The notes below the pieces were generated by a model that saw nothing but the letters and a program-made list of their open reading frames with translations, did not search any database and was not told the DNA's origin. DNA of 20,000 bases from an uncultured virus (IMG/VR IMGVR_UViG_3300044715_001089) (taxonomy: Duplodnaviria; Heunggongvirae; Uroviricota; Caudoviricetes): the IMG/VR virus record IMGVR_UViG_3300044715_001089. One strand, 5' to 3'. Of this stretch, positions 1 through 20,000 are shown in pieces. How positions within the stretch are numbered: the stretch's first letter is position 1; every line of letters begins with the position of its first letter. Made by a program: the position numbers and the translations under genes.

Positions 1-160
1 TATTGGCTTCAGGGGATTTAGGTTGAGCAAAGAACCAATTGCTATTGACTTCCTTAGAAGAGCAAGAAGCTTTGTGTCTCCAACCATTTTCATTAGCAGA
101 AATAATATTAAAGTCATCTAGCTTTTTAGAGCCTTTTGGTTTTCTACTAGTTTTTTTCAA
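1..160 (-). CDS. whiB: WhiB-family Fe-S transcription regulator, N-terminal part (runs off the window)
   Basis: Not in the ORF track. My translation from TTG at 160, with GGAG SD upstream, is MKKTSRKPKGSKKLDDFNIISANENGWRHKASCSSKEVNSNWFFAQPKSPEAN. W-R-x-x-A-x-C...(W)FF matches the WhiB N-terminal motif; the remaining Cys residues would lie outside the window. Confidence 0.75.
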   Translation of the reverse strand, partial: MKKTSRKPKGSKKLDDFNIISANENGWRHKASCSSKEVNSNWFFAQPKSPEAN

Positions 161-431
161 CAACTTCTCCAGATTTGATTAACTCAATTGATTGATTGAT
201 TTTTTTGTTTAATGATTCAAGGATTGCACTAGTTTCTTGTAGCGCATCCAATGTTGATTTGGAATCTTTACTTTGCATATACTCAACAACAGAAGAAAGA
301 TTTATGAGAACTTGTTTGGGCATCCAAATAATTTCTTTGAATAAAGAATAGATATCGTTATAATTATTCAGTATAACATCATGTTCATTGATGACTGAAT
401 TAATTATATCATCTAATTGTTCGGATTCCAT
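147..431 (-). CDS. hypothetical protein (helical)
   Basis: 94-aa ORF with ATG and AAAGG SD; overlaps the start of the whiB-like ORF. Confidence 0.7.
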   Translation of the reverse strand: MESEQLDDIINSVINEHDVILNNYNDIYSLFKEIIWMPKQVLINLSSVVEYMQSKDSKSTLDALQETSAILESLNKKINQSIELIKSGEVVEKN

Positions 432-3026: not shown

Positions 3027-3086
3027 TGTGTTTACCCTCTAACTTTTGGATTTGTATTGTATATAGTACAGACACATCTTTAATAG

Positions 3087-3159
3087 TGCGCCCTCCGGGG
3101 TTCGAACCCGGGACACATGGATTAAAAGTCCACTGCTCTACCAACTGAGCTAAAGGCGC
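3087..3159 (-). tRNA. tRNA-Lys (TTT)
   Basis: GCGCCTT/AGGGCGC acceptor, GTGGA-CTTTTAA-TCCAT anticodon arm, GGTTCGAACC T-arm; no CCA. Confidence 0.95.
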
Positions 3160-4460: not shown

Positions 4461-5693
4461 TCAAATCTTAATGTTAGGTGTAAAAGTCACAGGGATAGAT
4501 CTTGGACCGACTACTGATTCGTAAGCTTCTTTATAAAGAACTTCTCCAGTAATTTTATAATCTGGCATTCTTTTTGCAACAACTTTCATACATTCCTGCA
4601 TTTGAGCTCGTGCTAAAGAAGCACCGAGACAGTAATGAATTCCACCACCATAAGACAGGGTAATGCCCTTTGTTGCTTTACGATCAAGAATAAATTCAGA
4701 TGCGTTTTCAAAAGCTAAGTCATCGTAATTATTAACACCCAATGCTGGGGAGATAATTGTTCCCTTAGGGAATAAGACTCCATTGTATTCAATGTCTTCT
4801 GAAGCAATTCTCATTACATATTTAAAAACAGAATCTAAGCGAGTAGACTCTTCTATTATATCTTCAACATTTAAATCATTGGCTAACATCGATATTAAAT
4901 CTGGTCTCTCAGATAGCATAACTGCTATAAGACCAAGCTGTGCTCTAGTCGTATCCATGCCTGCCATCAGAACTACTTGGATAAGAGATTGTATTTCTTG
5001 ATCTGATAATTTTTGACCATCAAATTCTGCGTCAATTAACATAGAAACAAGGTCATTGCCTTTGTTTTCTTTTTTGCTGATGATTAAATTATTAGTATAT
5101 TGATCTAATTCATTTTGAGTATTTAATATAACTTCGCTATGGTGTTCAAAGTTTCCACCAAATGTTTTGAAGGTATCATCAGCCCATTGACTAAACTTCT
5201 CCCAATCTGAATTGGGGACTCCTACTATCTTAGAGATAATGTATGATGGATACTTGTTGAATACATCTTTTTGCAAATCGCATTGACCGCTTTCGATGAC
5301 ATCATTAAGAACTTGATTGATAGCATCTTGCATGTCTGGTCGAAGAAGCTCAGCTGTCTTTGGTGAAAAAACTGGAGCAATTATCTTTCTGAGTCTTGAA
5401 TGATCTTCGCCTTCTAAGTTAATTATTAATTTTTTCCTACTCATCTTAATCTCTTCAGTAAAATGAGGATTAAGTTCGCTTAATAAATACAAACCATTGT
5501 GCCATCTCTTGTCTTTCAACATAGCAGCAGAATGCTTGTGGTCTAAAATCACATAAGAAAGTTTTGTTGTGCCAATCCAGTTTTGCTTATGAGCTTCTAA
5601 ACCAATTTTAAATTGATCATAAGTTGTTAAATCAGATTTAATAAGTTTAGGTGGTACATAAGGAAGATCTAGTTCAGATACTAGAATAGACAT
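4461..5693 (-). CDS. cytochrome P450 (soluble bacterial type)
   Basis: HSRLRK (C-helix), AGMDTT (I-helix), EESTR (ExxR), YGGGIHYCLG (heme Cys ligand); 410 aa; AAGGA SD. Confidence 0.96.
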   Translation of the reverse strand: MSILVSELDLPYVPPKLIKSDLTTYDQFKIGLEAHKQNWIGTTKLSYVILDHKHSAAMLKDKRWHNGLYLLSELNPHFTEEIKMSRKKLIINLEGEDHSRLRKIIAPVFSPKTAELLRPDMQDAINQVLNDVIESGQCDLQKDVFNKYPSYIISKIVGVPNSDWEKFSQWADDTFKTFGGNFEHHSEVILNTQNELDQYTNNLIISKKENKGNDLVSMLIDAEFDGQKLSDQEIQSLIQVVLMAGMDTTRAQLGLIAVMLSERPDLISMLANDLNVEDIIEESTRLDSVFKYVMRIASEDIEYNGVLFPKGTIISPALGVNNYDDLAFENASEFILDRKATKGITLSYGGGIHYCLGASLARAQMQECMKVVAKRMPDYKITGEVLYKEAYESVVGPRSIPVTFTPNIKI

Positions 5694-6185: not shown

Positions 6186-6214
6186 TTTTTTCCTTATTAT
6201 AGTGTATTGCATAG

Positions 6215-6298
6215 TACCCGAGACCGGACTTGAACCGGTAAGAGGTTGCCCTCCGGGGGGTTTAAGCCCCCTGCGTCTGCCTATTCCGCCACTCGGGC
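6215..6298 (-). tRNA. tRNA-Leu (TAA)
   Basis: GCCCGAG/CTCGGGT acceptor, GGGGG-CTTAAAC-CCCCC anticodon arm, long variable arm GAGG-GCAA-CCTC, GGTTCAAGTCC T-arm; no CCA. Confidence 0.95.
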
Positions 6299-6720: not shown

Positions 6721-7116
6721 TCATAATACATTAAACCTGTTAATAATTTCATTCATATACAAAGTAGATATGGAATGAAATCTTTCGTTGTCTTGTATTA
6801 AGATAGAGTTGTAACCCAATATTACAGCATTACCATATATAACTTCATTAATATAATAAGTATTAGTGTAGTCTCTATATATAGAAGTTGCTAGGATATT
6901 AGATTCTTTAATTGATCTTTCATGGTCTTCATGAAAGATTAGACAATGGTTATTCTTTAATATTAATAAAGATAAGTTCTCTTCTGATAATCCAGCGTAA
7001 TTAAAAACATCATTCAATGAAGCTTTAATAACTTGTGGATAAGAATCAAAAGGTATTAGAATAGATTGAAAGAAATCATCATCAAAAGATTTATGAACAT
7101 CTTTCAAGGTCTTCAT
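6721..7116 (-). CDS. hypothetical protein, weak DUF3846-like
   Basis: LIFHED......N.LAT.IY........IYGNAVILG resembles a divergent DUF3846 pattern. Confidence 0.5.
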   Translation of the reverse strand: MKTLKDVHKSFDDDFFQSILIPFDSYPQVIKASLNDVFNYAGLSEENLSLLILKNNHCLIFHEDHERSIKESNILATSIYRDYTNTYYINEVIYGNAVILGYNSILIQDNERFHSISTLYMNEIINRFNVL

Positions 7117-8693
7117 CTATTGACGTCTTCCCACCAAGATTTTGGAGCAAGAAAGGATCCTACTGCACCTTGCAGGTAACACCTAATGATACCTGTAGCT
7201 TTAGCGTAGGTTCCATCTGTATTCTTTAATCTATAATAGTTTAAACGGCCAGTATAATCTACTGGAATAGTAAACGTTTGACCACTGTCGCAAGTCAATA
7301 GATAATGAGTTAAAACATCTTTGCCATAATAAACATCAAGATATGTAATCGTGAATACATCATGGAGGTAAGAGTTATAGACAGACGACATAGAGTCTAA
7401 CGAAACAAGCAATGGTTTTCCTACTGCATATCCAGTAACGGGAGGAAGGGTTGTAGTTACTGGGACAGTAGTAGTGGTCACCGGAACAGTAGTAGTAGTT
7501 GTTGTAGTAGGTAACGTTGTAGTTGTTGCATTTGGAATAGTAGTAGTAGTTACTACTGGAGGAACAACCGGTGTAGTAGTGGAATCAATCAAGGACTTCA
7601 TATTAATTCGCTTAGTTATAATTCCAGTGAAATCATCAACAGCAGGCGAAGAAGTAGATTGAAAGTCAGTAATAACTTTATCTACAGATTGGACACCAAA
7701 CTTGGAACGGTACACGGCTAAAGCTCCGGCAACAAATGGAGTTGCCATTGAGGTACCAGAAGCTGAACCATAAGATCCCATCAACTTAGAAGAGTTAATG
7801 GCATAGCCAGGAGCCGACAGTGTAGTAAACTGAGATACGTTAGAAAATGTAGTTACTTTATCTGTAGAAGTATAAGTAGCAGCTACGCTAACGGCGGTAG
7901 AGATACAAGCAGGAGCTGACATACCAGCAGAATAATTGTTTCCAGAAGCAATAACTGTAGCAATATTCTTTGACTTTAAATTGTTAATAGCTTGAGTAAC
8001 ATCAGGAAGATAAGAATCGCAAGTAGATCTAAAAACAGTGTTACCACCAAGTGACATATTAACTGAAGTAATGTTGTAAGTATCAGCTAAAGAGTAGACA
8101 TAGTTTAAAGCTTTAACCATATCATCATCATAGGCTGCACCATATACGTCAAAAATGTTGATAGCTATGATCTTTGCACCTGGGGCAATTCCATGAAACT
8201 GTGAGTTGCTACCAGCAATGATACCAGCAACGTGTGTCCCGTGATAATGCACTGGGACAGCTGCTCCTGGTCCAATCATCTGATTGGTACCATTAGGGCA
8301 ACGAGTAGCAAAGCAGGCTTCTAGAGCTATCTTATCGGCTAAGAAAGGATGTGCTTTTTCTACGCCGGTATCAATGACAACAACGTAAGATCCTTGCCCA
8401 GTATAACCAGAATCATAAGAATAGTCTGCACCTATCTTAGGAATAGCTGTGGACAAAGAAAGTTTAAATTTAACTTTAGAGTTAGCAGTAGCAACTTTAG
8501 ACTTAGTCTTTACAACTTTCTTATAAGAATGAGACTTAACTCTTTTGTTAGTCTTTTTCTTAGGTTTAGAATTGGGTTTAGTTATTTCTGAACCGCCCTT
8601 GTTTTGGGCAGCTTGGGCTGGAATAGCATTAGTAAGTGTAAACGTAGTTAACATAACTAATGCTGTTATGTATTTAGTTAATTTATTGTTCAT
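7113..8693 (-). CDS. secreted S8 (subtilisin-like) serine protease with Thr-rich linker
   Basis: Signal peptide (...AIPAQA), VVVIDTG (Asp), HGTHVAG (His), ASGNN (oxyanion Asn), SGTSMATP (Ser); start taken at ATG 8693. Confidence 0.93.
   Translation of the reverse strand: MNNKLTKYITALVMLTTFTLTNAIPAQAAQNKGGSEITKPNSKPKKKTNKRVKSHSYKKVVKTKSKVATANSKVKFKLSLSTAIPKIGADYSYDSGYTGQGSYVVVIDTGVEKAHPFLADKIALEACFATRCPNGTNQMIGPGAAVPVHYHGTHVAGIIAGSNSQFHGIAPGAKIIAINIFDVYGAAYDDDMVKALNYVYSLADTYNITSVNMSLGGNTVFRSTCDSYLPDVTQAINNLKSKNIATVIASGNNYSAGMSAPACISTAVSVAATYTSTDKVTTFSNVSQFTTLSAPGYAINSSKLMGSYGSASGTSMATPFVAGALAVYRSKFGVQSVDKVITDFQSTSSPAVDDFTGIITKRINMKSLIDSTTTPVVPPVVTTTTIPNATTTTLPTTTTTTTVPVTTTTVPVTTTLPPVTGYAVGKPLLVSLDSMSSVYNSYLHDVFTITYLDVYYGKDVLTHYLLTCDSGQTFTIPVDYTGRLNYYRLKNTDGTYAKATGIIRCYLQGAVGSFLAPKSWWEDVNR
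7451..7580. repeat. (GTA/GTT)n low-complexity tract encoding a Thr/Pro/Val linker
   Basis: Runs of gtagtagtagtt within the protease CDS. Confidence 0.8.
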
Positions 8694-8719
8694 AGAATAG
8701 TTTCCGTAGGTGGTATTGA

Positions 8720-10399
8720 CTACCAACGTTTTTTAGATTCAATCTTATTTTGAAGCCATTTAGGCTTAGGATTGTTTTCGTAATACTTAGATATGATTTG
8801 AGAAGCCATACCTTTAGTCATGTCAGCAGTAAGGGGTATACCTAAACGCTTTAACATTTTCTTTTGAGGATCAGTAGGTCCATCAGTTCTCCATTGAGCA
8901 GAAGAATCGATTAGAACTAAAGATGCTGCACGATTCTCTTGAATCCATTTGTCAGTGCCGGAAAATACTGATCTAAGATTATCAGCTCTACCAATAATCT
9001 TAACTGAAGTTTTATCATTATCTTTATAATGAAGCTCAGTATTCCAACGACCCAAAGCATCTAATGTTATATGCATGGACTCATTATTATTAAGACCTAG
9101 GTGGTAAGAGTTTTCACCGATCTCTGCCCATACATACTTAGAGTATTCTAAGATAGCAGGGTTTGGTGGTGGTGGCATAAACAAGTTAATGCGTTTGTAT
9201 GCACCTTGAATATCATCTGGATTAAGTACACGAATAGCTTCACCAGGACAATAGTCTTCTAGCTCTTCATACTTCTTAGCGACGTCTGTTAGGCTCTGTC
9301 CTTGTAAATCGAACTCTGGTGGCATTCCCAAAAGAGTAGGAAGGCCAATAGGCTTCTTCCCCCTCGTGGTGTCTGCAATATCGATAATCGTACAATGTTC
9401 TTTGCCTTCGAATAGACGGGTACCTCGACCAACAATCTGAGTATACAGAAGTGTTGATCTGGTTGGTTTAGCTAAGATAATTGTTTCCAATGAGGGTTCA
9501 TCAAAACCTTCGGTGAGAACACCTACATTGACAATTACTTTAAGTTTATTCGTAGAAAAATCCTGAAGGATCTTTTGACGTTCTTCGTGAGGAGTTGTCC
9601 CCACGATTACTTCGCATTCTACCGACGCTTGTCGAAAGGATAAGGCCAGGTTTTCGGCGTGTCGAACGCCGGATGCGAATACAATGGCTTTCGTAGCCAT
9701 TGCCAAATTGCGATAGGTAGCGACAACAAAAGCGTTGCGCTCAGGAGTATCCACTTTTTCTTCGAGTTGATCTTGAGCATATTCACCGTTTCTAATTTCG
9801 ACATCTGATATGTCTACATTTGTTTTAACTCTATATCCGATGAGGGGACTAAGCCAGCCATCTTCAATGAGATCTTGTATTGATTTATAGTAAACTATCT
9901 CATCGAAAACATCAATGAGTCTAACCGAATCCGACCTTTGCGGCGTTGCCGTAACTCCCAACAGAAAAGGAGGATTAAAGTAATCAACAATTCTTCTGTA
10001 AGAAGGAGCAGCAGCATGGTGGGCTTCGTCAATAACGATAGACTTAAAATAGTCATTAGGATATCCTTCAATACGGGGTGTGCCACTACGACCTAAGGTA
10101 GCTACAGAAGCTACCACTACGTCTACATGGCCAGCTTTACGATCAGCTTGCTCTATCTCTACAGTAAGTGTAGGGTTAGATGCCATGATCTTATTGCGGG
10201 CCTGCTCTAATAGCTCTGCACGATGTGCAAGAACGAGCATAGGTAGAGTGTTCTTGCGAATAACTGGTAGATGAGAAAACAAAACTGTTTTACCGGCACC
10301 AGTAGGGAGTACTACAAGTTGTTTACTAATTCCTTTTCCTTCATGGAATAGGATAGCATCAAGAGCTTCTTGCTGGTAGGGTCTAAGGGTAACGGTCAT
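8720..10399 (-). CDS. superfamily 2 DEAH helicase (Irc3/RadD-like)
   Basis: LRPYQ, LPTGAGKT, DEAHH, TAT, LTEGFD and QIVGRGTR motifs; C-terminal AQWR...T..Q segment. Confidence 0.93.
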   Translation of the reverse strand: MTVTLRPYQQEALDAILFHEGKGISKQLVVLPTGAGKTVLFSHLPVIRKNTLPMLVLAHRAELLEQARNKIMASNPTLTVEIEQADRKAGHVDVVVASVATLGRSGTPRIEGYPNDYFKSIVIDEAHHAAAPSYRRIVDYFNPPFLLGVTATPQRSDSVRLIDVFDEIVYYKSIQDLIEDGWLSPLIGYRVKTNVDISDVEIRNGEYAQDQLEEKVDTPERNAFVVATYRNLAMATKAIVFASGVRHAENLALSFRQASVECEVIVGTTPHEERQKILQDFSTNKLKVIVNVGVLTEGFDEPSLETIILAKPTRSTLLYTQIVGRGTRLFEGKEHCTIIDIADTTRGKKPIGLPTLLGMPPEFDLQGQSLTDVAKKYEELEDYCPGEAIRVLNPDDIQGAYKRINLFMPPPPNPAILEYSKYVWAEIGENSYHLGLNNNESMHITLDALGRWNTELHYKDNDKTSVKIIGRADNLRSVFSGTDKWIQENRAASLVLIDSSAQWRTDGPTDPQKKMLKRLGIPLTADMTKGMASQIISKYYENNPKPKWLQNKIESKKRW

Positions 10400-10487
10400 G
10401 TTTAAATTCCTTAAAAGAATTTGTTAGAATAATGGACAATAATTCTAATTGTAAAGTAGATTACCAAACAAGTTGGAATAATCATAA

Positions 10488-10697
10488 TTAGAATAAAGGT
10501 TCATAGAAGATTTCATCAACCATGAACTCATCCATTTTATCATATGGATTATCAAAAGAAACAACTTGATTAACCAAGTAACAATCTTCTTTAGTGACAA
10601 GATATTTATCTTGATTAGAAATAGAAGCTTTAGCTTTTGAATTTTTTGTATTATAAGTTTTACTTAAGCTACGTTTAGTTATATTTTTTATTAACAT
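10488..10697 (-). CDS. hypothetical protein
   Basis: 69-aa ORF with no clear SD. Confidence 0.45.
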   Translation of the reverse strand: MLIKNITKRSLSKTYNTKNSKAKASISNQDKYLVTKEDCYLVNQVVSFDNPYDKMDEFMVDEIFYEPLF

Positions 10698-10712
10698 ATA
10701 TTTATATAATTT

Positions 10713-11342
10713 CTAGATCTTGACAAGTATCTTGTCACCGATCATTGATGGGGGAAGTGTGTAGGGAAAATCCCTAAAAGAATAATAATTAATTAAAGTA
10801 TTAAAAGGAAATGGAGATTGTTTAATGTGTGACATGATATAAAACAACTCAGTAAGAGTACCACTTGCATCCAAAGATACAGCAGCTTCATCATCAAGCA
10901 TAGAAGCAATATTAAATTCATCATGTAACCAGATAACATTGTTATCAGAATCTACTTGATAGGGCATGATTACAAGACAAGATGAACTACGAGAAGCAAA
11001 GCTAAGAGTAAGACAATCTTCTTTCTTAGTAGCTTCACCAGTAGATTCATGAGACCTTAAGGTAACGTCACTAGACATCATGAATGAATGACCCTCTAAT
11101 GCGCTATAGGAATAGAGCATTTCGGCAAAGCAGGTGTACATGTCTTTCTTAGAAGTATAAGGACGAGCTTCTAGTGCAAACATAGGACTTGAATCATGGT
11201 CGTAAATTACAAGCATTGGGTTGTAAGAGTCAGGTCCGTTTTCTTTAACGCAAGCTTCAAAGGTCTTTTGAAGACTAGCGATTTCTACTTCAGGATTCTG
11301 ATGAATACCAAATTCATTTAGAAGATCAACATCAAAACTCAT
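10713..11342 (-). CDS. hypothetical protein
   Basis: 209 aa, GAGG SD, ATGA coupling. Confidence 0.8.
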   Translation of the reverse strand: MSFDVDLLNEFGIHQNPEVEIASLQKTFEACVKENGPDSYNPMLVIYDHDSSPMFALEARPYTSKKDMYTCFAEMLYSYSALEGHSFMMSSDVTLRSHESTGEATKKEDCLTLSFASRSSSCLVIMPYQVDSDNNVIWLHDEFNIASMLDDEAAVSLDASGTLTELFYIMSHIKQSPFPFNTLINYYSFRDFPYTLPPSMIGDKILVKI

Positions 11343-11686
11343 AGTTGAACCTCATTGATAACGCCAAATGTAGCGTAGGTAAGATAGGCAAAGATAGCAA
11401 GAGTAAATCCTGCAGGAACAAACATGCCCATGGATATAAATGCGTAGACTCCAAGAGCAGAGATTAAAGCCTCAGTTGCCCAATAGGAAATCAAAGATCC
11501 AACTTTAACTTCTGGTCTAGCAAAGAACTCTTTTGTTTTAGTTGCACTAATACGTGTAAGCCTTTTACTTTTAGTAAAGAGCGTATCTTGAGATACGTAC
11601 TGTGGTACATGATAAGCGATTTCAAGATCGTTCATCTTGAGTCTATCGAAGAACGATGCGTATGGGGTTGGTGTAATAATAGTCAT
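11339..11686 (-). CDS. hypothetical membrane protein (two C-terminal TM helices)
   Basis: AAGGA SD; hydrophobic C-terminal half. Confidence 0.75.
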   Translation of the reverse strand: MTIITPTPYASFFDRLKMNDLEIAYHVPQYVSQDTLFTKSKRLTRISATKTKEFFARPEVKVGSLISYWATEALISALGVYAFISMGMFVPAGFTLAIFAYLTYATFGVINEVQL

Positions 11687-11860
11687 AACTATTCCTTACT
11701 GTAAAGATAATATATTTTTGTTTTGTATATACTTAAAAGGATAAGTATATGGCTGTACGATCCACTAATAATCCGGTGCCGAAGAACTCCGTTTATTTTT
11801 TTTTTTGAGAATATTAAATAGTTTTTTCTTTGTATAAACTAAACATGATTAATTCAAATC

Positions 11861-12097
11861 TTATTCAGAAAACATTTCATCCCAACACTTCGGGTGAGTA
11901 CCTGAAATCATCCATTCACGAATGTCTGGAGCTGTATCAGGAAAAACATCTTGAGCATACTCTAGATTTTTAACCCATCGATCGTACTGATCTTGTGTCA
12001 TTAAAAAGAATACTTCATCATTACAATGAAGGCATATCTTTTGAACAAAACAAGGAGCTACTTCTTTAGTGAGTCTATAATAGATCACATTGGTCAT
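11861..12097 (-). CDS. small phage protein, putative metal-binding
   Basis: CLHC ... QDVFP...REWMISGTHPKCW.EMF pattern (CxxC plus HxxC). Confidence 0.7.
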   Translation of the reverse strand: MTNVIYYRLTKEVAPCFVQKICLHCNDEVFFLMTQDQYDRWVKNLEYAQDVFPDTAPDIREWMISGTHPKCWDEMFSE

Positions 12098-12121
12098 AAT
12101 GGTACCTTTTAAAAATAGAGT

Positions 12122-12189
12122 AAAAGCCAGCTGTCATATTTAGTGAGCCGAGCTGGCGTCGGTCATTCTCCTGCATATGACTAAGCAGG
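12122..12189 (-). promoter_or_regulatory. candidate attenuator/riboswitch-like leader: terminator with kissing-loop partner
   Basis: GCCAGCT/AGCTGGC stem followed by UUUU; upstream CCTGC/GCAGG hairpin; the two loops are complementary over 7 nt. Confidence 0.45.
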
Positions 12190-12319
12190 TCTTAAGACTT
12201 TAATCCTAGAGCACAAGAAAGGATTATTTCTTTGTACCCAATAAACACACACATTTAATCATAATACATCTAAGCATTATAAGTTCAATGAACTTGTACT
12301 CTAGGAAATCTTAATTGGG

Positions 12320-12664
12320 TTAGGCTGTAAGCATTACCCAAAGATCGATCATCTTTGTTTGTTCGTTGAGAACAGACGCTGAAGAGATACTGAGATTATC
12401 TTTTGCTGCGCGAGCAAACAATGATGCACGAAGGGTGCTCAGTTGCTTTTTGTCGGTGATGGGAATGTTTACGTGGAACCACTGGTTACGCTTACCTACA
12501 AGCTCGTTGTAGATTGCGGTAATCACTGGATTACGCTTACGGCCTTTGCCTGCACCGATTGGTGGCTCGCCTTGGATTGGTGTGAGCAGCTTGGTTGGCT
12601 CAGCCATCTTGAACCGCCCTGGGTTCTGATGTACTTGAGTCTCTGTACTTGTTATCATAGGCAT
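12320..12664 (-). CDS. hypothetical basic protein
   Basis: 114 aa, GAGG SD, GKGRKR basic patch. Confidence 0.75.
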   Translation of the reverse strand: MPMITSTETQVHQNPGRFKMAEPTKLLTPIQGEPPIGAGKGRKRNPVITAIYNELVGKRNQWFHVNIPITDKKQLSTLRASLFARAAKDNLSISSASVLNEQTKMIDLWVMLTA

Positions 12665-12721
12665 GATTTACCTCTTATTATATAGTGGTGATAGGAACTG
12701 AAATTGTTCATTGCTTTTTAT

Positions 12722-13477
12722 TCAATAAGGATTATTAGGTGGGGCAATGTAACTAGAATTTTTGAATGAAGATGATGGCTCTTGTCCAATAACTTCTATG
12801 TATCGGATCTGATGCCAGTGAGACAAGAAGATCTTAGTTGCATAGCGTCGAGCTTGAGCTTCTAGCCTGGAGTCTTCTGTGTCAGCACCTGAATCATCTC
12901 GTTGTTTGATTCTACGGTCAAGCTCTTTAGTATAGAGTTGACCGTAAAAGGAATCAGGAACAGTAGCAAAAGATTTGCCGATCTTCCAAGTAAGATTCTT
13001 TAAGAATGGGTTCCAAGATCCTGGTTGAGCAGTACTTGGATTAAGACCACAATAGCTCCATAAGTTATTAAAGTTAGGAGCTTTGTGAATATCTATCGTA
13101 GACAACAACGCAGCAGAGGCAGCTTGTCCGATACCAGGCTGTTGTAAAGCCCAGGTACCAGTCACAGTGGAGTGGTTATAGTCACTAAAGATGGGAGTAG
13201 TAGAATTCTCTAATCCTCTTAGATAATGAGAATATGATTTAAAAACAGATGAGTTCTTAGAATCATTGAGATCTAGCAACGAGATCCGTGTGTCTTCTAT
13301 GTCATAATAGAAAGATACAAGGTTTTCCATTTCTGTAGTATCAAAACCACGAGAAATAAAATTAAATTTGCGTGACATTATAGACACAACATCTACGCTC
13401 ATAAGGGTGTCTGATTCAATATCTAATTGGGCTAGATCTTGATTGTGAACATGGTCATAGTTAATTTGATTATTCAT
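12722..13477 (-). CDS. IS110-related Nop-domain protein lacking RuvC (TasA-like)
   Basis: PGIGQAASAALLSTIDI...LWSYCGLNP...WNPFLK.L.WKIGKSF...YG.LY...ARRYATKIFL matches the Transposase_20/Nop fold; no N-terminal DEDD domain. Confidence 0.7.
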   Translation of the reverse strand: MNNQINYDHVHNQDLAQLDIESDTLMSVDVVSIMSRKFNFISRGFDTTEMENLVSFYYDIEDTRISLLDLNDSKNSSVFKSYSHYLRGLENSTTPIFSDYNHSTVTGTWALQQPGIGQAASAALLSTIDIHKAPNFNNLWSYCGLNPSTAQPGSWNPFLKNLTWKIGKSFATVPDSFYGQLYTKELDRRIKQRDDSGADTEDSRLEAQARRYATKIFLSHWHQIRYIEVIGQEPSSSFKNSSYIAPPNNPY

Positions 13478-13739
13478 TAGGTGTTTCTTGAAGTTTAAAG
13501 TTATTATAGATGAATCTTACTAGTAGGGCAGCAAGATGTTCATCGTAGCCAGGAAAATCAGAATGACATGAGCAGTCGCTGCAGTCAGCATCTTCATACG
13601 AGCAATCGTCACAGCAGTCGCCGTCGTCATCGTCGTATTCATACTCTTCTACATTGGCATCGATAATGTATTGTAGTATGATTTCTTTTATTTTAGACTT
13701 AGAGTCTAGTTCTTCTGGTAGGTAGTTAGTTTTAGGCAT
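13470..13739 (-). CDS. hypothetical protein with Asp/Cys-rich cluster
   Basis: Start moved to ATG 13739 (AAGGA SD); contains DDDDGDCCDDCSYEDADCSDCSCH. Confidence 0.65.
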   Translation of the reverse strand: MPKTNYLPEELDSKSKIKEIILQYIIDANVEEYEYDDDDGDCCDDCSYEDADCSDCSCHSDFPGYDEHLAALLVRFIYNNFKLQETPNE

Positions 13740-13785
13740 AGGGATATCCTTATGATTAAGGGTAATGATTCTTGTGTTTTGCATT

Positions 13786-13807
13786 AAGGGGAATGGGTAT
13801 TCCCCTT
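13786..13807. terminator. hairpin after the transglycosylase gene
   Basis: AAGGGGAAT-GGGT-ATTCCCCTT; only a short U-tract on the minus strand. Confidence 0.45.
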
Positions 13808-13817
13808 TTACTGCAAA

Positions 13818-14693
13818 CTAGCGTACAGAAGTAGCTTTAACATTCCAGTTTCTAAGTCTGCCACTAGAGAAGTGGAGAATCCAACTGGCGAATAAAGCAT
13901 TGACTGCTGGTGTCATTAGATCGTCAGGGGCATAACCAAATTGTTCTCTTAATGTTTTAAACCATGAAGAGTTGATTTGGAGCAGACCTGAGTCGTATGA
14001 ACCGTTAGAGTTGAGGGTCCAGACTATATGCCCGTTTTCCCATTTAGCATTGACGGCTCCAGGATTACACCTAGATTCACGCCAAGCGATATAAGAAAAC
14101 ACTTTGTGTGGCAGGGCATACTTCTTAAAAGTATCTTCAAACTGTGGACAGTAAAATTCTTTACCTACAGGAAGTTTAACTTTAAGAACTGTGTCTTTTT
14201 TAGGTTTGAGGTAAGTATTATTTTTAATACAGCCCCAACCATTAAAGCCAACAGCTGGTCTAAAGAATGGTGTGTTATTAGTTCTGTCTTCGACAGTCAT
14301 AAACTCATTCTTTGTTTGGTAGCCAAACACTGCAATTCTGTTAGCCACTACGATCTGTTCAAGAACAGTCGCTTTGGAAGGATGAGATGCAAACTCTTTG
14401 CCACCATATCCTTGCCATGTGGATTTAGCTATGCCAAGTCCACCACCCCAGTTGCCACCGTCTTGCCAGTCCTGGCGAGTCTCGCATTGGGCTACTTTAG
14501 TCCAGTACTTAATAGAAGGTCCCATCTTAAATTCGACGGACTTCCACTTAGTAGGAGTACTGAGTAGGGTGGTACTTCGGGGCTCGGAAGAAAGCTCCGA
14601 GACGCCTCCAGTTGCTGCACCAGCAGCAGAGCTAACAACAACAGATGTTACTAGCATTGTTAATATTAATATTATCACTCGTAGTATGCGCAT
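13818..14693 (-). CDS. secreted dual lytic transglycosylase (Rpf-like domain + SLT domain)
   Basis: Signal peptide; WTKVAQCET..W.....GGGL.I..STW..YGG......AT..EQI.VA.RI (Rpf); IAWRESRCNP.AVN...DSGLLQIN..W...L..P..N (SLT); AAGGAG SD. Confidence 0.88.
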   Translation of the reverse strand: MRILRVIILILTMLVTSVVVSSAAGAATGGVSELSSEPRSTTLLSTPTKWKSVEFKMGPSIKYWTKVAQCETRQDWQDGGNWGGGLGIAKSTWQGYGGKEFASHPSKATVLEQIVVANRIAVFGYQTKNEFMTVEDRTNNTPFFRPAVGFNGWGCIKNNTYLKPKKDTVLKVKLPVGKEFYCPQFEDTFKKYALPHKVFSYIAWRESRCNPGAVNAKWENGHIVWTLNSNGSYDSGLLQINSSWFKTLREQFGYAPDDLMTPAVNALFASWILHFSSGRLRNWNVKATSVR

Positions 14694-14889
14694 TTTATTC
14701 GCTCCTTTTCGATTGGGTTTGAAATCTTAAAAACAGATTTCATTAGCATCGCGCAGGTTGCGAAATCGAATGTTCCGGACACAACGAATTGTCCGTTCAA
14801 CAAAAGACAGGTTTGCCTTCTCCGACTTCACAGTATAACTGTTACGTAAGGGATTGTTTCCCTGCCCGCTTGTCAACGGGCATGTATAT

Positions 14890-14898
14890 AGTATAACA
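14890..14898 (-). promoter_or_regulatory. extended -10 promoter (TG-T-TATACT) ahead of a ~190-nt structured leader
   Basis: TGTTATACT lies just upstream of the first leader hairpin. Confidence 0.5.
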
Positions 14899-14927
14899 CA
14901 TTGGATATGGGTGGTTCCAGTTGGTGT

Positions 14928-15086
14928 TCAGCTACATTCCTCCTTGTTAGGACTATTAGAAAGGTCTTGCCTAAGAAGACGAACTTCTTCGGTAAGTTGA
15001 TCAATTTTTTGAGCAACCAAGACTATTGACCTAGTGAGTAGATTTACATCAACAGGGTGCTGTTGAGTTCTATCTTTCTTAGCCAT
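14928..15086 (-). CDS. small coiled-coil protein (52 aa, MAKKDRTQQHPVDVNLL...KIDQLTEEVRLLRQDL...)
   Basis: Translated by hand; AAGGA SD; heptad pattern. Confidence 0.65.
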   Translation of the reverse strand: MAKKDRTQQHPVDVNLLTRSIVLVAQKIDQLTEEVRLLRQDLSNSPNKEECS

Positions 15087-15273
15087 AGTCTATTCCTTAA
15101 TAATAATCTTTTGAAAACAGGAAGCAATAGATAAAAAAAGGCCTCATATCTAACCATAACTTTAAAACAAAGAAGTAGATTTTTAGTTTACTTATTCGCT
15201 CTTAACAAAGCAAATGGTTAGCATGAAGCCGATTTATCGAGATTACTGCGCTGTTATCAATTGTTGATAACCT

Positions 15274-15498
15274 CTATATAGTACCCTCGTTATTTAAAAA
15301 GAGGGTGTTTTGTGAGGAATTAATTTTAAAAGTACCACGCTTAACTGACTCAAAGCGTGATGCATTTGAACGAATAAAAGTGTATACTGTTTGAATGGTA
15401 GTTTCTACTGCATCAGCAATCTGCTGAGGAGTAACTTCACTACCAATGTTCTGGTCAAGGTATTGTGTTATGAGTTGAGTTTTATTTCTCTTTTGCAT
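15274..15498 (-). CDS. winged-helix DNA-binding protein
   Basis: VTPQQIADAVETTIQTVYTFIR (HTH) followed by FESVKRGTFKI (wing); AAGGA SD. Confidence 0.7.
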   Translation of the reverse strand: MQKRNKTQLITQYLDQNIGSEVTPQQIADAVETTIQTVYTFIRSNASRFESVKRGTFKINSSQNTLFLNNEGTI

Positions 15499-15686
15499 TG
15501 TGGTTTCCTTTCCCGTTAACGGGGATTGTTTATGGATTTTTATTCATATAAAGGTATATAAATAATTGTGTTACATAGGAATAGTTTAGCAAATAAAGTT
15601 GATAAAATCAAGAACATCATTACAAATAATATAATATATATAGTGATGATGTCCTCGAAGGTATATAAAATCAATGGTCTAACAAA

Positions 15687-15971
15687 TTAATCTTGACGTG
15701 GAGCTATCTTAGAGACTTGCATGAGAGCTTGAAAGAAAGTTATGATGGTTTCATGAACTTTGAAGTTAGCGTCCATTAATGAAGAAAGACTAACAACAGT
15801 ATCTTCTGGAAGTGTGTAAAGATCTAATTCAAGAATATAATTTTGGATAGTGCTAACATTTTCAGACAGCACTGACATCATAGACATGAGCTCAGCGTGG
15901 TTAGCCAAGAAGAATTTCTCAATGTCTGCAGGGTCTTGTAAGTTATAACTTGAGATATCAATATCAGCCAT
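15687..15971 (-). CDS. hypothetical acidic helical protein
   Basis: Start moved to ATG 15971 (GAGG SD); the ORF-track start lies inside the RNA stem. Confidence 0.65.
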   Translation of the reverse strand: MADIDISSYNLQDPADIEKFFLANHAELMSMMSVLSENVSTIQNYILELDLYTLPEDTVVSLSSLMDANFKVHETIITFFQALMQVSKIAPRQD

Positions 15972-15992
15972 ATTAGTTGGTGCCTCTCGTTT

Positions 15993-16121
15993 AAAAAAAA
16001 CCATAGTCAACTCTGCCATCTCTAGGACAGTGGTGATGGGGCACTGGGAGATTTTAATCTGAGCTAAGGAGGGTAAGTGCTCAAAGATTATTTCCTAGAG
16101 ACAGCAGAGCTGACTACAGTT
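15993..16121 (-). ncRNA. candidate sRNA with 28-bp closing stem, two C-rich loops and U8 tail
   Basis: 16093-16120 pairs with 16000-16027 without interruption, using five G-U pairs that exist only on the minus strand; loops are ACUUACCCUCCUUA and CCCCAUCAC. Confidence 0.7.
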
Positions 16122-16143
16122 CGTTGTTTTTTATGGTAGCGGA

Positions 16144-16159
16144 TGTTTCACGTGGAACA
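16144..16159. promoter_or_regulatory. parS: parS-like palindrome
   Basis: TGTTTCACGTGGAACA, reverse complement TGTTCCACGTGAAACA, fits the chromosomal consensus TGTTNCACGTGAAACA; intergenic. Confidence 0.75.
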
Positions 16160-16202
16160 TTGTAAGTTGGTGTTAACCCTCGTACGCGTTCGCCCGCGTG
16201 AG

Positions 16203-16247
16203 AAAAAAAACCCCCAGAATACTAGCAACGTGCTAATACTCTGGGGG
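16203..16247 (-). terminator. Rho-independent terminator of the polymerase-like gene
   Basis: CCCCCAGAGTATTAGCA-CGT-TGCTAGTATTCTGGGGG followed by T8, about 12 nt after the stop codon. Confidence 0.9.
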
Positions 16248-16258
16248 TTCATAAACTG

Positions 16259-18802
16259 TTAAGCAGTTTTCTTTGCGTTGGTAAACACAATAGGGCTAAT
16301 CTTACCACGGAATCTTTGGTATTCAATGGCTTCATCAAAGGTATGATAACTGCCATCTTCATCGATGCCAATCCATTCAGATGTCTTGCTCTGCATTACT
16401 CGGACTGTGCCATCTTTGTTTCTAATGAAAGAAACTACGTTAGCCAATCCATAATATTGGAGTGCTCGTTCAAGGAACGGAAAGACATGTCGATTGAATA
16501 CGATTTGGTCACTTACTTTACCATTTGAAGTTGGGTGCTTCAAGCTGGCAGAATAGAGACCAAGTACTAGATCGTGTCGATCAGACTCATTGTCATGTAG
16601 TTCAATCTTATCAACGATTGATTGATACAGGAAGTCCCAGCTACTGCTGTCAAGATAACCACTAGATTCATTCATGTCTGATTGATTCAAGTTGTAAATA
16701 TCTTTACGGAATTGTTTTAAGATAGGAATAGCATTGAAGCTCAAGCGATAGCCAATCTTATGAATAACTTCATCAGGTTGACAGTTCTTTTGAGCCCATT
16801 CGGTAATCATCTTTACATACTCACGATATTTAGTTTTCGTGATCATATTAAGCTGAGTGATTTTACCTTCGTGCTTTTCTACAAATTGGCCTGGCTTGAG
16901 ATAGTAGTCAAACTTCTTAGCATCCCATAATGAACGGTCTACTGGAAGTCCAGAACTAATAACTTCATCAACCAATACTTTAGCTTCAAGCTCAATCGCT
17001 TCACGGTCAGCTGGTTCGTTTGTCTGAGTGCAACCGTCGATTGCATCTTCCAAACTACACAGTTGAAGTGGACGATGAGAATGGAACACAGAAGTATGTA
17101 GCATTACAGCATTGACGAAACCGCCAACGCCTCCACCTGTCATACTAGATCGGATATCATTAAAGACATCTTGTCTAGTATAGGTTTCAGTACGTTCAGC
17201 TTTAGGAGCAGTAGAAGAAGGAAGTCCTACATAGCTAACTTTCCCTGCGTGAATGGCGGTAGATAGGCGCATAGGCCAACCACGTCCAGAACACTCAGGA
17301 AACTTAACTTGAGTACCGTCACTGGTCAACCAAGTTGGAGACCATTGTCCTTCTACATATCTAAATACAGAGTACTCACCAAGACCATTTGGAGATCGAC
17401 GTGCAAAGACAACCTTTTCTTTATCATATTGTCCACCAACTGGAGTCCTATAGAATAAACCAAAGAAGTCGTCACCGTCGCAGCCACCATGGCTCTCATA
17501 CATCTCAATCCAATCGAGATCATTAACTACGTGTACACCAAGGTCATTGATGCGTTGAATAGTTCCTTCTTCGACTTCTACATCATAACCAGATAAGCGA
17601 GCCATAGACTCGCTAATAATCTGTTCAGATACAGAACAAGGGATTGGGATACGTTCTTGAAGGGGTTTAGCATGGCTAGTAGCAAGGGTCTGGAATAACC
17701 AAGGGGAATCAGTTACCTTCATCCCCATTGCTTTCCAGCGATAACCTTGATATTGAAACCGTGCATAAGACTCTTCATCTTCAAGGTTAGTATCATCACG
17801 GAAAGAACGTTGGTATACATTCTTCCAGTTCATCAAAAGCTTATTGTTGATGGCATCGTTGAAGAGTTTCTTATATTCCTCGTCTAGCCAATATTCCATA
17901 TCACTCTTGGTAAAGAGTTGTGGCATATTAATAAGAGTTTGATCGTCCGTACGGACTTTGGACTTAGGTCCTTGAGGCTCAGCAATGAGTTGATAGCCTT
18001 CAGAATATGAGATCTCTGTCTTGACATTTCCATGCCAAGTCAATACATCTACACCTTCAGGAAGTTTATCGGTAACAAAGCAGTTGCCTTTAAGCTGACC
18101 CATTGGTCCAGTAAGTCTAATATTAAATACTTTAGCATTATATAGATTACGGATGCAATCCATACGCATAGTAGGATTAAGATAGTACTCACCTGGATCC
18201 TCGTTTTCAGCGGGATCAAAGATAGGTAGGTTATCAATACCTTTATGGATCAATCGTGGATGGATAGCAAAGCCACCGTCTAAGAGTCGATCCCAAACTT
18301 CAGGATTTTGATAAAATTCTTGATAGTCTTCAGCATCTATAAGCCAATAGCCTTCTTCATCGCTATCGAAATAGCGACTAAAGTCGCCGGCTTCACAATA
18401 GCGTATTTTGATTTCATCAAGATCAAAGTGAGCATTGATTAAAGTAGGTCGATGGAGAGTCTTCAACCGCTTAGCAGTCTTGCCTCCACCGTGGACAGTA
18501 TAACCCATATCAGTAAAGATACTAAGCCATTCAGTATTGTTGCCAATTTGACAGATAACAATTTTGTTCTTGTCAACTAGAGCATACTGAATAGAAGGAT
18601 CATTAATGATTTGTTGAATTTGGGTAAATTCATGTTCGTTTTGTGGGATAGGCAAAGAGCCTACCCGATAGAATGATTCGCCAGAATATTGTAATGCCTG
18701 GCGAAGGTGAGATATATCGTAGAAACCTACTTGATATCCACCTGTAGAGCGAATAGGTCCATCAGCATAGCAGATAGTTCTTGTTTTGGGGTTAATGGCC
18801 AA
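16259..18802 (-). CDS. putative single-subunit two-barrel RNA polymerase (YonO/cellular RdRP-like), atypical active site
   Basis: 847 aa; motifs LLDGGFAI, FNIRL...LKG, HGGCDGDDFF, VFARRSPNGLGEY, VGGFVN and EDAIDG; AAGGAGG SD. Confidence 0.6.
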   Translation of the reverse strand: MAINPKTRTICYADGPIRSTGGYQVGFYDISHLRQALQYSGESFYRVGSLPIPQNEHEFTQIQQIINDPSIQYALVDKNKIVICQIGNNTEWLSIFTDMGYTVHGGGKTAKRLKTLHRPTLINAHFDLDEIKIRYCEAGDFSRYFDSDEEGYWLIDAEDYQEFYQNPEVWDRLLDGGFAIHPRLIHKGIDNLPIFDPAENEDPGEYYLNPTMRMDCIRNLYNAKVFNIRLTGPMGQLKGNCFVTDKLPEGVDVLTWHGNVKTEISYSEGYQLIAEPQGPKSKVRTDDQTLINMPQLFTKSDMEYWLDEEYKKLFNDAINNKLLMNWKNVYQRSFRDDTNLEDEESYARFQYQGYRWKAMGMKVTDSPWLFQTLATSHAKPLQERIPIPCSVSEQIISESMARLSGYDVEVEEGTIQRINDLGVHVVNDLDWIEMYESHGGCDGDDFFGLFYRTPVGGQYDKEKVVFARRSPNGLGEYSVFRYVEGQWSPTWLTSDGTQVKFPECSGRGWPMRLSTAIHAGKVSYVGLPSSTAPKAERTETYTRQDVFNDIRSSMTGGGVGGFVNAVMLHTSVFHSHRPLQLCSLEDAIDGCTQTNEPADREAIELEAKVLVDEVISSGLPVDRSLWDAKKFDYYLKPGQFVEKHEGKITQLNMITKTKYREYVKMITEWAQKNCQPDEVIHKIGYRLSFNAIPILKQFRKDIYNLNQSDMNESSGYLDSSSWDFLYQSIVDKIELHDNESDRHDLVLGLYSASLKHPTSNGKVSDQIVFNRHVFPFLERALQYYGLANVVSFIRNKDGTVRVMQSKTSEWIGIDEDGSYHTFDEAIEYQRFRGKISPIVFTNAKKTA

Positions 18803-18883
18803 AATCCCTCCTTAAGAGATTGTGTAATTATAATTATATTTTTGTATGTCTTTGCATAAACATAAAAAAGTATGATGGGGGGT

Positions 18884-18921
18884 GTAAGTGGGAGTATACA
18901 TTTCTGCATACTCCCACCTAC
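18884..18921 (-). terminator. 17-bp GAAA-tetraloop hairpin (terminator or processing signal)
   Basis: GTAGGTGGGAGTATGCA-GAAA-TGTATACTCCCACTTAC with G-U pairs on the minus strand; the U6 tract is displaced about 14 nt downstream. Confidence 0.6.
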
Positions 18922-18945: not shown

Positions 18946-20000
18946 TTATTCCCAGGAAATTGGAGCTTCACCAGCAACAGCCGAAGCTGGTGCAGATGCA
19001 GTCGTATTACCTGAGGTATTAGCTTGCAATGAGTTTGTCCAAAGATCAACTGGCATTACTTTGTCGTTAACGACAACAGAGAAACGTCCGCAGTTAGCTT
19101 TGGTTGCATACCACTGGTCTTGAAGTTCAATAACAGAAGGATCTTTCTCGTCGATAACTTTACCTTGAGAAGAACCAGACCAAACGCTTGACCAGTTCTG
19201 AGAAATGCGCATCAAAGCATTTGCATGCTCTTCAACGGCTTTAATTTTCTCAGGAGACCATGCTTCTACAACAGAGTTTGTAGTGATATCGTTCTTCATA
19301 GCTGCTGAAGTCTTACGAAGATCTACAATACGCTTGTAGTTAGCTGTAATGGCATCTACGAAATCAAGGAAACCTTGACCTGTCTTAGATTCTTCGCGCT
19401 TTGCACGGCTAACTTCAAAGCCTACAATTGCAGGACCAGTAAGGTTCTTTGGCATTTCCCAAACTTCTTTAACTTTAGCAGGCAAGTTCTTAGTACCGAG
19501 ACCACTTACTGCACCAAGTGACTTGAATGAGTCACGAAGTTCGTTGTAGCTATCGATATTAGAGCCAAACTGTTGCCAGAAGAAGGTCATACCTGAGTTG
19601 AAACGGAAGCCAAGGCTTTCGAGTGTAGGCATGAATTCTTCCAATGTAACTTGGTTTTGAGCTGAAGCATTAGACATTGCAAGAAGAAGTTCTTGAAGGC
19701 TAATAATTTCAGTTCCAATCATTACTTCTACGTCCATTTGAACGTTGTTAAAGATACCTGATACTAATGGCTTTGTGCCATTTGCAGAAGTGTGATCTTC
19801 AACGCTAAGACGCTGGAGATTTGCAGATTTTAAGGTAACGAAACCAGGAAGCATGTTGCCATTAAAGGAAGCCTGAAATGGAACACGACGGCCAAGGATT
19901 AAGTTAGCTGTTTTTGGTGTGGACTGCAGTATTTCGGGTGAATCTACTGCAATTCCAAGTGAACCTTCTGGGTCGAAGGACTTAACAAGTGTATTTAGAA
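18946..20000 (-). CDS. hypothetical protein, 5' end outside the window
   Basis: The frame stays open from 19854 to the window edge (...LNTLVKSFDPEGSLGIAVD...FNGNMLPGF); low-complexity tail ends GEAPISWE. Confidence 0.8.
   Translation of the reverse strand, partial: LNTLVKSFDPEGSLGIAVDSPEILQSTPKTANLILGRRVPFQASFNGNMLPGFVTLKSANLQRLSVEDHTSANGTKPLVSGIFNNVQMDVEVMIGTEIISLQELLLAMSNASAQNQVTLEEFMPTLESLGFRFNSGMTFFWQQFGSNIDSYNELRDSFKSLGAVSGLGTKNLPAKVKEVWEMPKNLTGPAIVGFEVSRAKREESKTGQGFLDFVDAITANYKRIVDLRKTSAAMKNDITTNSVVEAWSPEKIKAVEEHANALMRISQNWSSVWSGSSQGKVIDEKDPSVIELQDQWYATKANCGRFSVVVNDKVMPVDLWTNSLQANTSGNTTASAPASAVAGEAPISWE

Follow-up and report, generated by a model that had tools for sequence, protein, structure and literature searches.

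A putative two-barrel RNA polymerase with a DxDD acidic loop and a post-loop Arg-x-Pro in large uncultured phages

In the available portion of Ruprich-Robert & Thuriaux (2010), the two-barrel RNA polymerase superfamily is defined by eight residues, which in QDE-1 are D709, R738, K743, R962, P964, D1007, D1009 and D1011. The Arg-x-Pro element is placed there 30-45 residues before the acidic loop (R962/P964 in QDE-1, R446/P448 in Rpb1), and both the DxDxD loop and this preceding Arg-x-Pro are treated as universal, from bacterial RNA polymerase (RNAP) to the polymerases of RNA interference. The part of Cui et al. (2022) available to us describes the QDE-1 Asp triad as binding cations A and B, with D709 helping to hold cation B; R738, K743 and K767 as holding phosphates; and the R-x-P 'Pro-Gate loop' as reading the 2'-OH and the minor groove. 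Among phages, the accessible literature on YonO presents it as an RNAP whose Asp triad is proven catalytic, while P23-45 encodes two paralogous two-barrel RNAPs, the tail-tape-fused virion enzyme gp96 and the non-virion enzyme gp64. Here these enzymes are compared with the product of a gene from an uncultured tailed phage, located in a 20,000-nucleotide stretch of the virus record IMGVR_UViG_3300044715_001089 (the window), for which a two-barrel polymerase with permuted motif order had been proposed from the letters of the sequence.

The gene is a single open reading frame (ORF) starting with TTG. Its product is probably a single-chain DNA-dependent RNA polymerase of the non-virion type, from a divergent lineage of two-barrel enzymes, encoded by a large uncultured myovirus of a freshwater lake as one of two or three paralogs. 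The gene and its immediate signals, with lengths given in nucleotides (nt) or amino acids (aa), are as follows.

16259..18802, minus strand: coding sequence of the polymerase-like protein P0001, 847 aa, to which homologs align from residue 5 to about residue 845
18807..18813, minus strand: Shine-Dalgarno (SD) sequence AAGGAGG, read from the sequence, 4 nt before the TTG of the polymerase gene
16250-16208, minus strand: intrinsic-terminator-like hairpin of 20 pairs (8 G-C) with a 3-nt loop and a T run after it, located 9 nt beyond the stop codon

The original prediction had credited the gene with a very strong SD and a terminator of its own, and both are found. As the number of terminator-like sites in a 3.2-kb scan shows no excess over shuffled sequences (2 against 2.3 +/- 1.5), support for the terminator comes from the quality of the individual site. 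A 10-bp inverted repeat with a 10-nt loop, lacking a T run and not called by the terminator scan, also lies in the interval that separates the polymerase gene from the gene upstream of it (18888-18917, minus strand). The source contig (G000) is viral, 104,067 bases in length and 49% complete according to CheckV, and carries the genes of a tailed phage: terminase, portal, major head protein, tail fibres, a UvsX-like recombinase, single-stranded DNA-binding protein, uracil-DNA glycosylase and a WhiB-like regulator. A 100%-identical copy of the polymerase gene is found on a contig of 267,766 bases (G001), judged 100% complete, and the genome of this myovirus is approximately 200-270 kb in size.

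A search of 1.84 billion cluster representatives recovered 275 relatives at E<=1e-3, 164 of them at E<=1e-10; the family is large and is represented in metagenomes only. Conservation was counted after aligning 153 sequences to the family hidden Markov model (HMM) with hmmalign, 134 of these covering the acidic loop; the family and its conservation are direct observations. The principal conserved elements are listed below, with denominators reflecting the sequences that cover each position.

18467..18481, minus strand: K-x-x-K-R block, residues 108-112; K111 in 128/128, R112 in 124/128
18263..18286, minus strand: LLDGGFAI, residues 173-180; D175 in 123/125, G176 in 125/125; candidate barrel-B Asp, possibly comparable to QDE-1 D709
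18086..18127, minus strand: FNIRLTGPMGQLKG, residues 226-239; R229 in 98/126, K238 in 126/126, G239 in 113/126; candidate R/K...KG phosphate-binding strand
18020..18022, minus strand: K261, in 126/128; 23 residues past K238 (family median 24)
17636..17653, minus strand: RIPIPC, residues 384-389; semi-conserved pre-loop RxP, with RxP in 64, KxP in 23 and neither in 47 of 134
17468..17491, minus strand: HGGCDGDD, residues 438-445; acidic loop D442-x-D444-D445
17372..17401, minus strand: RRSPNGLGEY, residues 468-477; post-loop R469-x-P471, followed by G-E-Y
17102..17128, minus strand: VGGFVNAVM, residues 559-567; G560 in 125/127, N564 in 112/127
17033..17050, minus strand: EDAIDG, residues 585-590; E585 in 116/129, D589 in 130/130

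All six strings in which polymerase motifs had originally been recognised, the remaining two being HGGCDGDDFFGLF (residues 438-450) and VVFARRSPNGLGEY (residues 464-477), occur within the 847-aa protein in the order proposed. In a 99-sequence alignment, K111, G176, K238, D442, D444, D445, R469 and P471 are invariant, and D175, R112, K261, Q288, G439, G560 and D589 are conserved in at least 90% of sequences. The DxDD loop is present in every one of the 134 loop-covering members, eight of which read DxDDD, such that both the conservation of the three Asp residues among homologs and the departure of the CDGDD loop from DxDGD hold across the family. An RxP likewise follows the loop in 134/134, at a median of 19 residues. 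This implies that the motifs first noted constitute the conserved core of the family, and that their unusual order is a fixed family trait.

The lineage also appears to be uncharacterised, as had been suggested. A word-indexed profile search returned only close, nameless relatives, and those relatives with names at source are all 'hypothetical', except for one protein from a metagenome-assembled genome named after its C-terminal helix-hairpin-helix (HhH) domain, a DNA-binding domain detected at E 6e-12. The 847-aa protein gave no match by tblastn in phage and plasmid record collections, a scan of cellular genomes with the single protein produced 30 pattern matches of which none was confirmed, and the PADLOC anti-phage defence models matched none of the three polymerase paralogs. 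A literature search, within the library it covered, found no paper on a phage RNA polymerase with DxDD, and further listings did not include the family; the 23-family alignments of the P23-45 paper may list a related family.

The original prediction interpreted the position of the Arg-x-Pro as a rearranged double-psi barrel. As an observation on motif order the permutation stands; the rearranged barrel is not required, because a pre-loop RxP or KxP persists at roughly the canonical place. Sixty-four of the 134 members retain RxP, and a further 23 KxP, in a strand resembling 'RIPIPC' that precedes D442 by about 57 residues. Two readings of the sequences therefore present themselves: the catalytic barrel may be circularly permuted, or it may be an ordinary barrel that has lost its canonical gate by decay, its place being taken by a new and invariant one on an insertion after the loop.

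The set of conserved residues (Asp, Arg/Lys...Lys-Gly, three Asp and Arg-x-Pro) chemically resembles the eight that are invariant in two-barrel enzymes. In the family their order is D175, R229, K238, K261, then the three Asp and the invariant R-x-P, and the median spacing of 24 between the positions of K238 and K261 equals that between K743 and K767 of QDE-1 (24). The equivalence of D175, R229 and K238 to D709, R738 and K743 of QDE-1 is suggested by pattern and spacing, with no significant alignment. Feature neighbours in the ESM Atlas are consistent with such a relationship: with the whole protein, clusters of the PF05183 RNA-dependent RNA polymerases (RdRPs) were ranked 4 and 14 (scores 0.89 and 0.88), and with residues 160-600, PF05183 accounted for six of the seven rows shown for named clusters (scores 0.86-0.88). 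On this basis we infer the fold and the roles of individual residues: D442, D444 and D445 would hold the catalytic Mg2+, with D175 assisting the second metal; R229, K238 and K261 would hold the 3' end of the RNA as well as the phosphates of the nucleoside triphosphate (NTP); and R469-x-P471, just past the metal loop, would take the part of the Pro-Gate loop in reading the ribose 2'-OH.

Several results weigh against this assignment. By the tool's own grading, ESM Atlas scores below 0.9 are leads. Pfam, PHROGs, NCBIfam, PADLOC and, by phmmer, PDB sequences gave no match to the 847-aa protein; none of 59 family proteins reached PF05183 at E<=1, and a PF05183 search of four related phage records yielded nothing at E<=10. 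The family profile returned noise from PDB chains, with the QDE-1-type structures 7w82/7w84 at E about 1, and these were lost when a barrel-B sub-profile was used, leaving just a designed repeat protein and a ribosomal protein. Comparison by hhalign with YonO alone and with a 35-sequence YonO profile gave a probability of 0.4%; at the sub-domain level the expected motifs were paired, yet the probability was 1-2%. Unfiltered hmmsearch (--max) between the family and YonO produced a best E of 0.025 in one direction and 0.83 in the other. In addition, the superfamily's DxDxD signature is replaced by DxDD throughout, with just the eight DxDDD sequences fitting D-x-D-x-D, and the Arg-x-Pro that is invariant in the family sits after the loop rather than before it. 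A link at the profile level to YonO and QDE-1-type enzymes, which would have followed from the earlier proposal, was hence not obtained. The two-barrel reading survives in part: its motifs proved to be the invariant core of the family and the genome context suits a phage transcription enzyme, whereas all sequence and profile tests were non-significant.

These same results invite the suggestion that the protein is an Mg2+-dependent nucleotidyl transferase or polymerase of some other fold, such as a right-hand palm, whose likeness to two-barrel enzymes is convergent. The absence of significant similarity to any two-barrel protein, the departures from the canonical DxDxD and motif order, and a loop ending in DD, as does motif C of reverse transcriptases and viral RdRPs, can all be explained in this way. 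However, none of the 59 family proteins matches the Pfam reverse transcriptase, RdRP, PolA/B or primase-polymerase models at E<=1, the family-named language-model neighbours are PF05183 rather than palm polymerases, and the first Asp of DxDD is invariant as well. D175 and D442 are moreover separated by 267 residues, a long spacing for palm motifs A to C. Such a convergent origin is considered improbable.

The level of paralogy within related genomes was also studied. G001 contains three family members, namely the window gene, an 843-aa paralog with 53% identity and a protein of 2,071 aa; two are found in each of G002, G004, G006 and G007, and one in G005. G004, a near-complete relative, has direct terminal repeats. 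Of the 158 close relatives compared, the window protein is the nearer of the two for 20 and the 843-aa paralog for 66, with 72 ambiguous. The second, divergent paralogs of G004 and G006, considered as potential bridges to known RdRPs, were rejected as such, as they too carry DxDD and have no match to Pfam RdRP models.

G001 126821-133036 (L018:4821-11036), minus strand: distant paralog of 2,071 aa with the DxDD...RxP signature, in the tail module

The family HMM aligns with residues 627-911 of this giant protein, with KxxKR and N-x-R..KG further upstream. Its gene lies between those for the tail sheath and the baseplate wedge, and its neighbours encode a 2,313-aa protein and one of ~3,800 aa that has a peptidoglycan-hydrolase (endolysin-like) domain. 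Giant-type relatives are present in four of eight related records, including both of those at least 90% complete, and GGFDLDD...RQPTGPxEF is retained in all three giant-type proteins in which the catalytic region was found (G001, G002 and G004). In G004 the giant-type gene appears to be split (18555-21911; L037), with a barrel-B-like match (family HMM 141-229) in a 340-aa ORF that is in another frame and adjoins the ORF carrying GGFDLDD...RQPTGP; this could reflect a frameshift, an error of sequencing or a division into two subunits.

The position of the giant paralog among structural genes bears on the view that the family is not one of polymerases at all, and instead comprises nucleases, phosphatases, structural or host-takeover proteins with an acidic metal site. 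Polymerase activity is, furthermore, predicted from sequence. Five metatranscriptome runs each contained 5-7% of the sampled words, and of the four examined three gave nothing and one a single 173-nt contig (window positions 17058-17230), which is evidence of neither transcription nor habitat. By contrast, the invariant Asp triad, Lys/Arg residues and Arg-x-Pro across 134 sequences, the HhH fusion, the RdRP-type neighbours and the lack of any other RNAP in the searches made (beta/beta' in G001, sigma70 in six genomes) are better fitted by a polymerase, making a non-polymerase function very unlikely.

A further directly observed feature of the genome is a promoter-like array upstream of the polymerase gene.

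G000 59765-64587 (L006:6765-11587), minus strand: array of 19 promoter-like units with a ~22-nt motif, 5-10 kb beyond the right edge of the window

This block of 4.8 kb lies about 6.5 kb upstream of the polymerase gene on the same strand. It comprises 14 exact and five degenerate copies of TTATATATCTTTAAAT-n-TATAGTG, and all 19 hits of the position weight matrix in the 104-kb contig sit within it; in the whole of G001, the exact motif is found 14 times in one orientation and never in the other, with no occurrence of a control pattern. Downstream of every copy come an SD and the start codon ATG of a very small ORF (42-113 aa), and most copies follow a long hairpin, there being 12 terminator-like sites in the array against 4.1 +/- 2.1 expected; the four hairpins that were folded had z-scores of -3.9 to -5.4. 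For sigma70-type matches the array shows no such excess (6 against 10.2 +/- 3.4 expected). Polymerases encoded by phages typically use long, near-identical promoters of this sort. At the syntenic place, G002 (L011:1-3000) has its own array, with a related but diverged motif.

The polymerase gene itself has no array motif upstream, and the upstream regions of its orthologs do not align into a shared promoter. Searching G002 and G003 for the array motif with two mismatches was uninformative, with 31/16 and 11/7 matches relative to 14/15 and 7/4 for controls, as the AT-rich background swamps any signal. A second promoter class represented by TTACTATA is similarly unsupported, having 14 occurrences where about 11 are expected on an estimate from composition. 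Were the family to be polymerases, the giant tail-module paralog might be delivered with the DNA and transcribe the ~19 early promoter units, with the ~845-aa paralogs, including the window protein, transcribing later genes; we infer the template, product and timing of the enzyme in this sense.

The replication and transcription genes of the related genomes were also surveyed. DNA polymerase III alpha, a gene of ~1,110 aa, was found in four of six genomes and in all three of those at least 90% complete, with PolA and PolB each in none of the six. Sigma70 region 2 was also detected in 0/6, and the Pfam cores of beta' (RNA_pol_Rpb1_2) and beta (RNA_pol_Rpb2_6) gave 0 matches at E<=1 in G001, with controls positive in 14/14. 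Two limits on these searches tell against the polymerase assignment: that for beta/beta' covered G001 alone, with Pfam models to which highly divergent multisubunit RNAPs of phages may be invisible, and that for T7-type RNAP (PF00940) is uninformative, its control having been silent. With Pol III alpha present, and neither sigma70 region 2 nor, in G001, a beta/beta' core, the replicase is accounted for and a conventional transcription enzyme is not.

Part of the window belongs to a five-gene block that is duplicated in G001 (window 7113-18802 versus L019:1543-7999), the pairs being the polymerase (53% identity), p115 (37%), p209 (26%), a RadD/XPB-like helicase (74%) and a subtilase (48%). The window copy has an insertion of ~4.5 kb between the polymerase and the 115-aa gene.

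8720..10399, minus strand: RadD/XPB-like superfamily 2 helicase, duplicated together with the polymerase in G001 (74% identity)

The duplication of polymerase and helicase as a block, together with the DNA-metabolism genes that neighbour them in the window, raises the question of whether a two-barrel enzyme here performs a different task, that of an RNA-dependent RNA polymerase, of a primase-like or DNA-synthesising enzyme resembling archaeal PolD, or of a repair or recombination polymerase acting with the co-duplicated helicase. There is precedent in the sources available in part, since QDE-1 has both DNA- and RNA-templated activity and archaeal PolD is a two-barrel DNA polymerase with a double-psi barrel core, and the lack of PolA and PolB in the six genomes would leave room for one. 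Against this, Pol III alpha in 3/3 near-complete genomes already accounts for the replicase; for a genome of 200-270 kb, the searches made (beta/beta' in G001, sigma70 in six) turned up neither a different RNA polymerase nor a sigma factor; and the Arg-x-Pro, which in the QDE-1 description available reads the ribose 2'-OH, would fit the use of NTPs. Such an alternative role seems unlikely, and transcription from DNA remains the preferred function.

A broader proposal, put forward tentatively, is that the family forms a separate two-barrel lineage with a rebuilt active site, in which the loop is one residue shorter (DxDD) and the gate is supplied by a post-loop segment, whether through a hairpin or a permutation. 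Combined with giant and free paralogs, a helicase and the ~19-unit array, this could amount to a complete, host-independent transcription system that censuses filtered by [RK]xP...DxDxD do not see. According to the accessible part of the P23-45 paper, the pattern '[RK]xPx{20,100}DxDxD' served as the filter in its census of viruses that have at least two RNAPs (Supplementary Data 4); as just 8/134 fit DxDxD, that filter as given would exclude 126/134 family sequences by the loop alone. If the proposal is true, a large and abundant phage family has kept the chemistry while changing both signatures, showing how far an ancient active site can be remodelled; the family would be a blind spot of RNAP surveys, and its compact polymerase (~95 kDa), along with a candidate promoter that is long and well defined, would become available for study and possibly as a tool.

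The immediate neighbours of the polymerase gene are conserved in order in two related phages, these being the 353-aa gene, the polymerase, the 110-aa gene and the 74-aa gene.

18946..20000, minus strand: upstream 353-aa gene, continuing beyond the end of the window; in the two related phages its counterparts (46% and 45% identity) keep this place next to the polymerase
15687..16019, minus strand: downstream 110-aa gene, syntenic in the same phages (24% and 21%)
15274..15498, minus strand: downstream 74-aa gene, syntenic in the same phages (49% and 49%)

Elsewhere in the window, phage tRNA genes are found at 450-526, 2196-2270, 3086-3159 and 6214-6298, all on the minus strand; ARAGORN identified Met, Lys and Leu tRNAs, of which Rfam confirms two and adds the weaker 450-526 (35 bits). 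A full-length bacterial-type cytochrome P450 is encoded at 4461-5693 on the minus strand (Pfam E 9e-25, and E 2e-46 against a monooxygenase of solved structure). The ORF at 12722-13477, also on the minus strand, has a weak IS110-type 'transposase' match to one sub-domain (Pfam E 7e-6), and seems to belong to the phage's own gene set and not to an insertion sequence, because a counterpart with 34% identity occupies the syntenic place in G003. The WhiB-like regulator (G000 34344-34751; L005:16347-16751; PHROG E 2e-16) overlaps window positions 1-163, and from the known range of its family we presume a hint of an actinobacterial host. Beyond the window, adjacent ORFs (G000 78667-80530; L007:10667-11326 and 11364-12527) match positions 253-353 and 369-643 of the phrog_2 large terminase profile, such that this gene may be split or interrupted. 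An AAA ATPase, a ThiF-like E1 and a JAB-domain protein adjoin one another at G000 25711-30167 (L005:7714-12167) and may form a phage ubiquitin-like conjugation set, and runs of four to five paralogous 2-oxoglutarate-Fe(II) oxygenase genes are present at G001 149803-153937 (L021:10806-14937) and L008:15534-16923.

Among known systems, QDE-1 and the eukaryotic RDR-type RdRPs (PF05183; PDB 2J7N, 7W82-type) are single-chain proteins, as is the family protein, and share with it the order of barrel-B residues, consisting of Asp, Arg...Lys and a second Lys 23-24 residues on, followed by the Asp triad; in the language-model comparison, too, the closest clusters that bear a name are PF05183. They differ in having DxDGD rather than DxDD, and an RxP ~43 residues before the loop where the family's invariant RxP is ~19 after it; no significant sequence or profile similarity connects the two, and the family protein originates from a phage, a double-stranded DNA virus. 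YonO of Bacillus phage SPbeta, a single-chain DNA-dependent RNAP, resembles the family protein in its phage origin and in length (839 versus 847 aa), and its sequence, taken from the SPbeta record, has the same series of motifs: DG, R..KG, RSP, acidic loop, G...N and ID. However, the RSP of YonO is 41 residues before DNDGD, whereas that of the phage protein is 24 residues after DGDD, and relatives of YonO partly reach PF05183, which the phage family never does. The arrangement of paralogs is reminiscent of P23-45 gp96/gp64 and gp66 of phi14:2 (a crAss-like phage), in which a giant tail or virion paralog is accompanied by a free one, here the 2,071-aa tail-module protein and the ~845-aa proteins, with the virion location of the 2,071-aa giant being suggested by gene position alone. 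Those enzymes, in the sources available in part, keep DxDxD (DFDID in crAss-like phages), in contrast to the DxDD of the present family.

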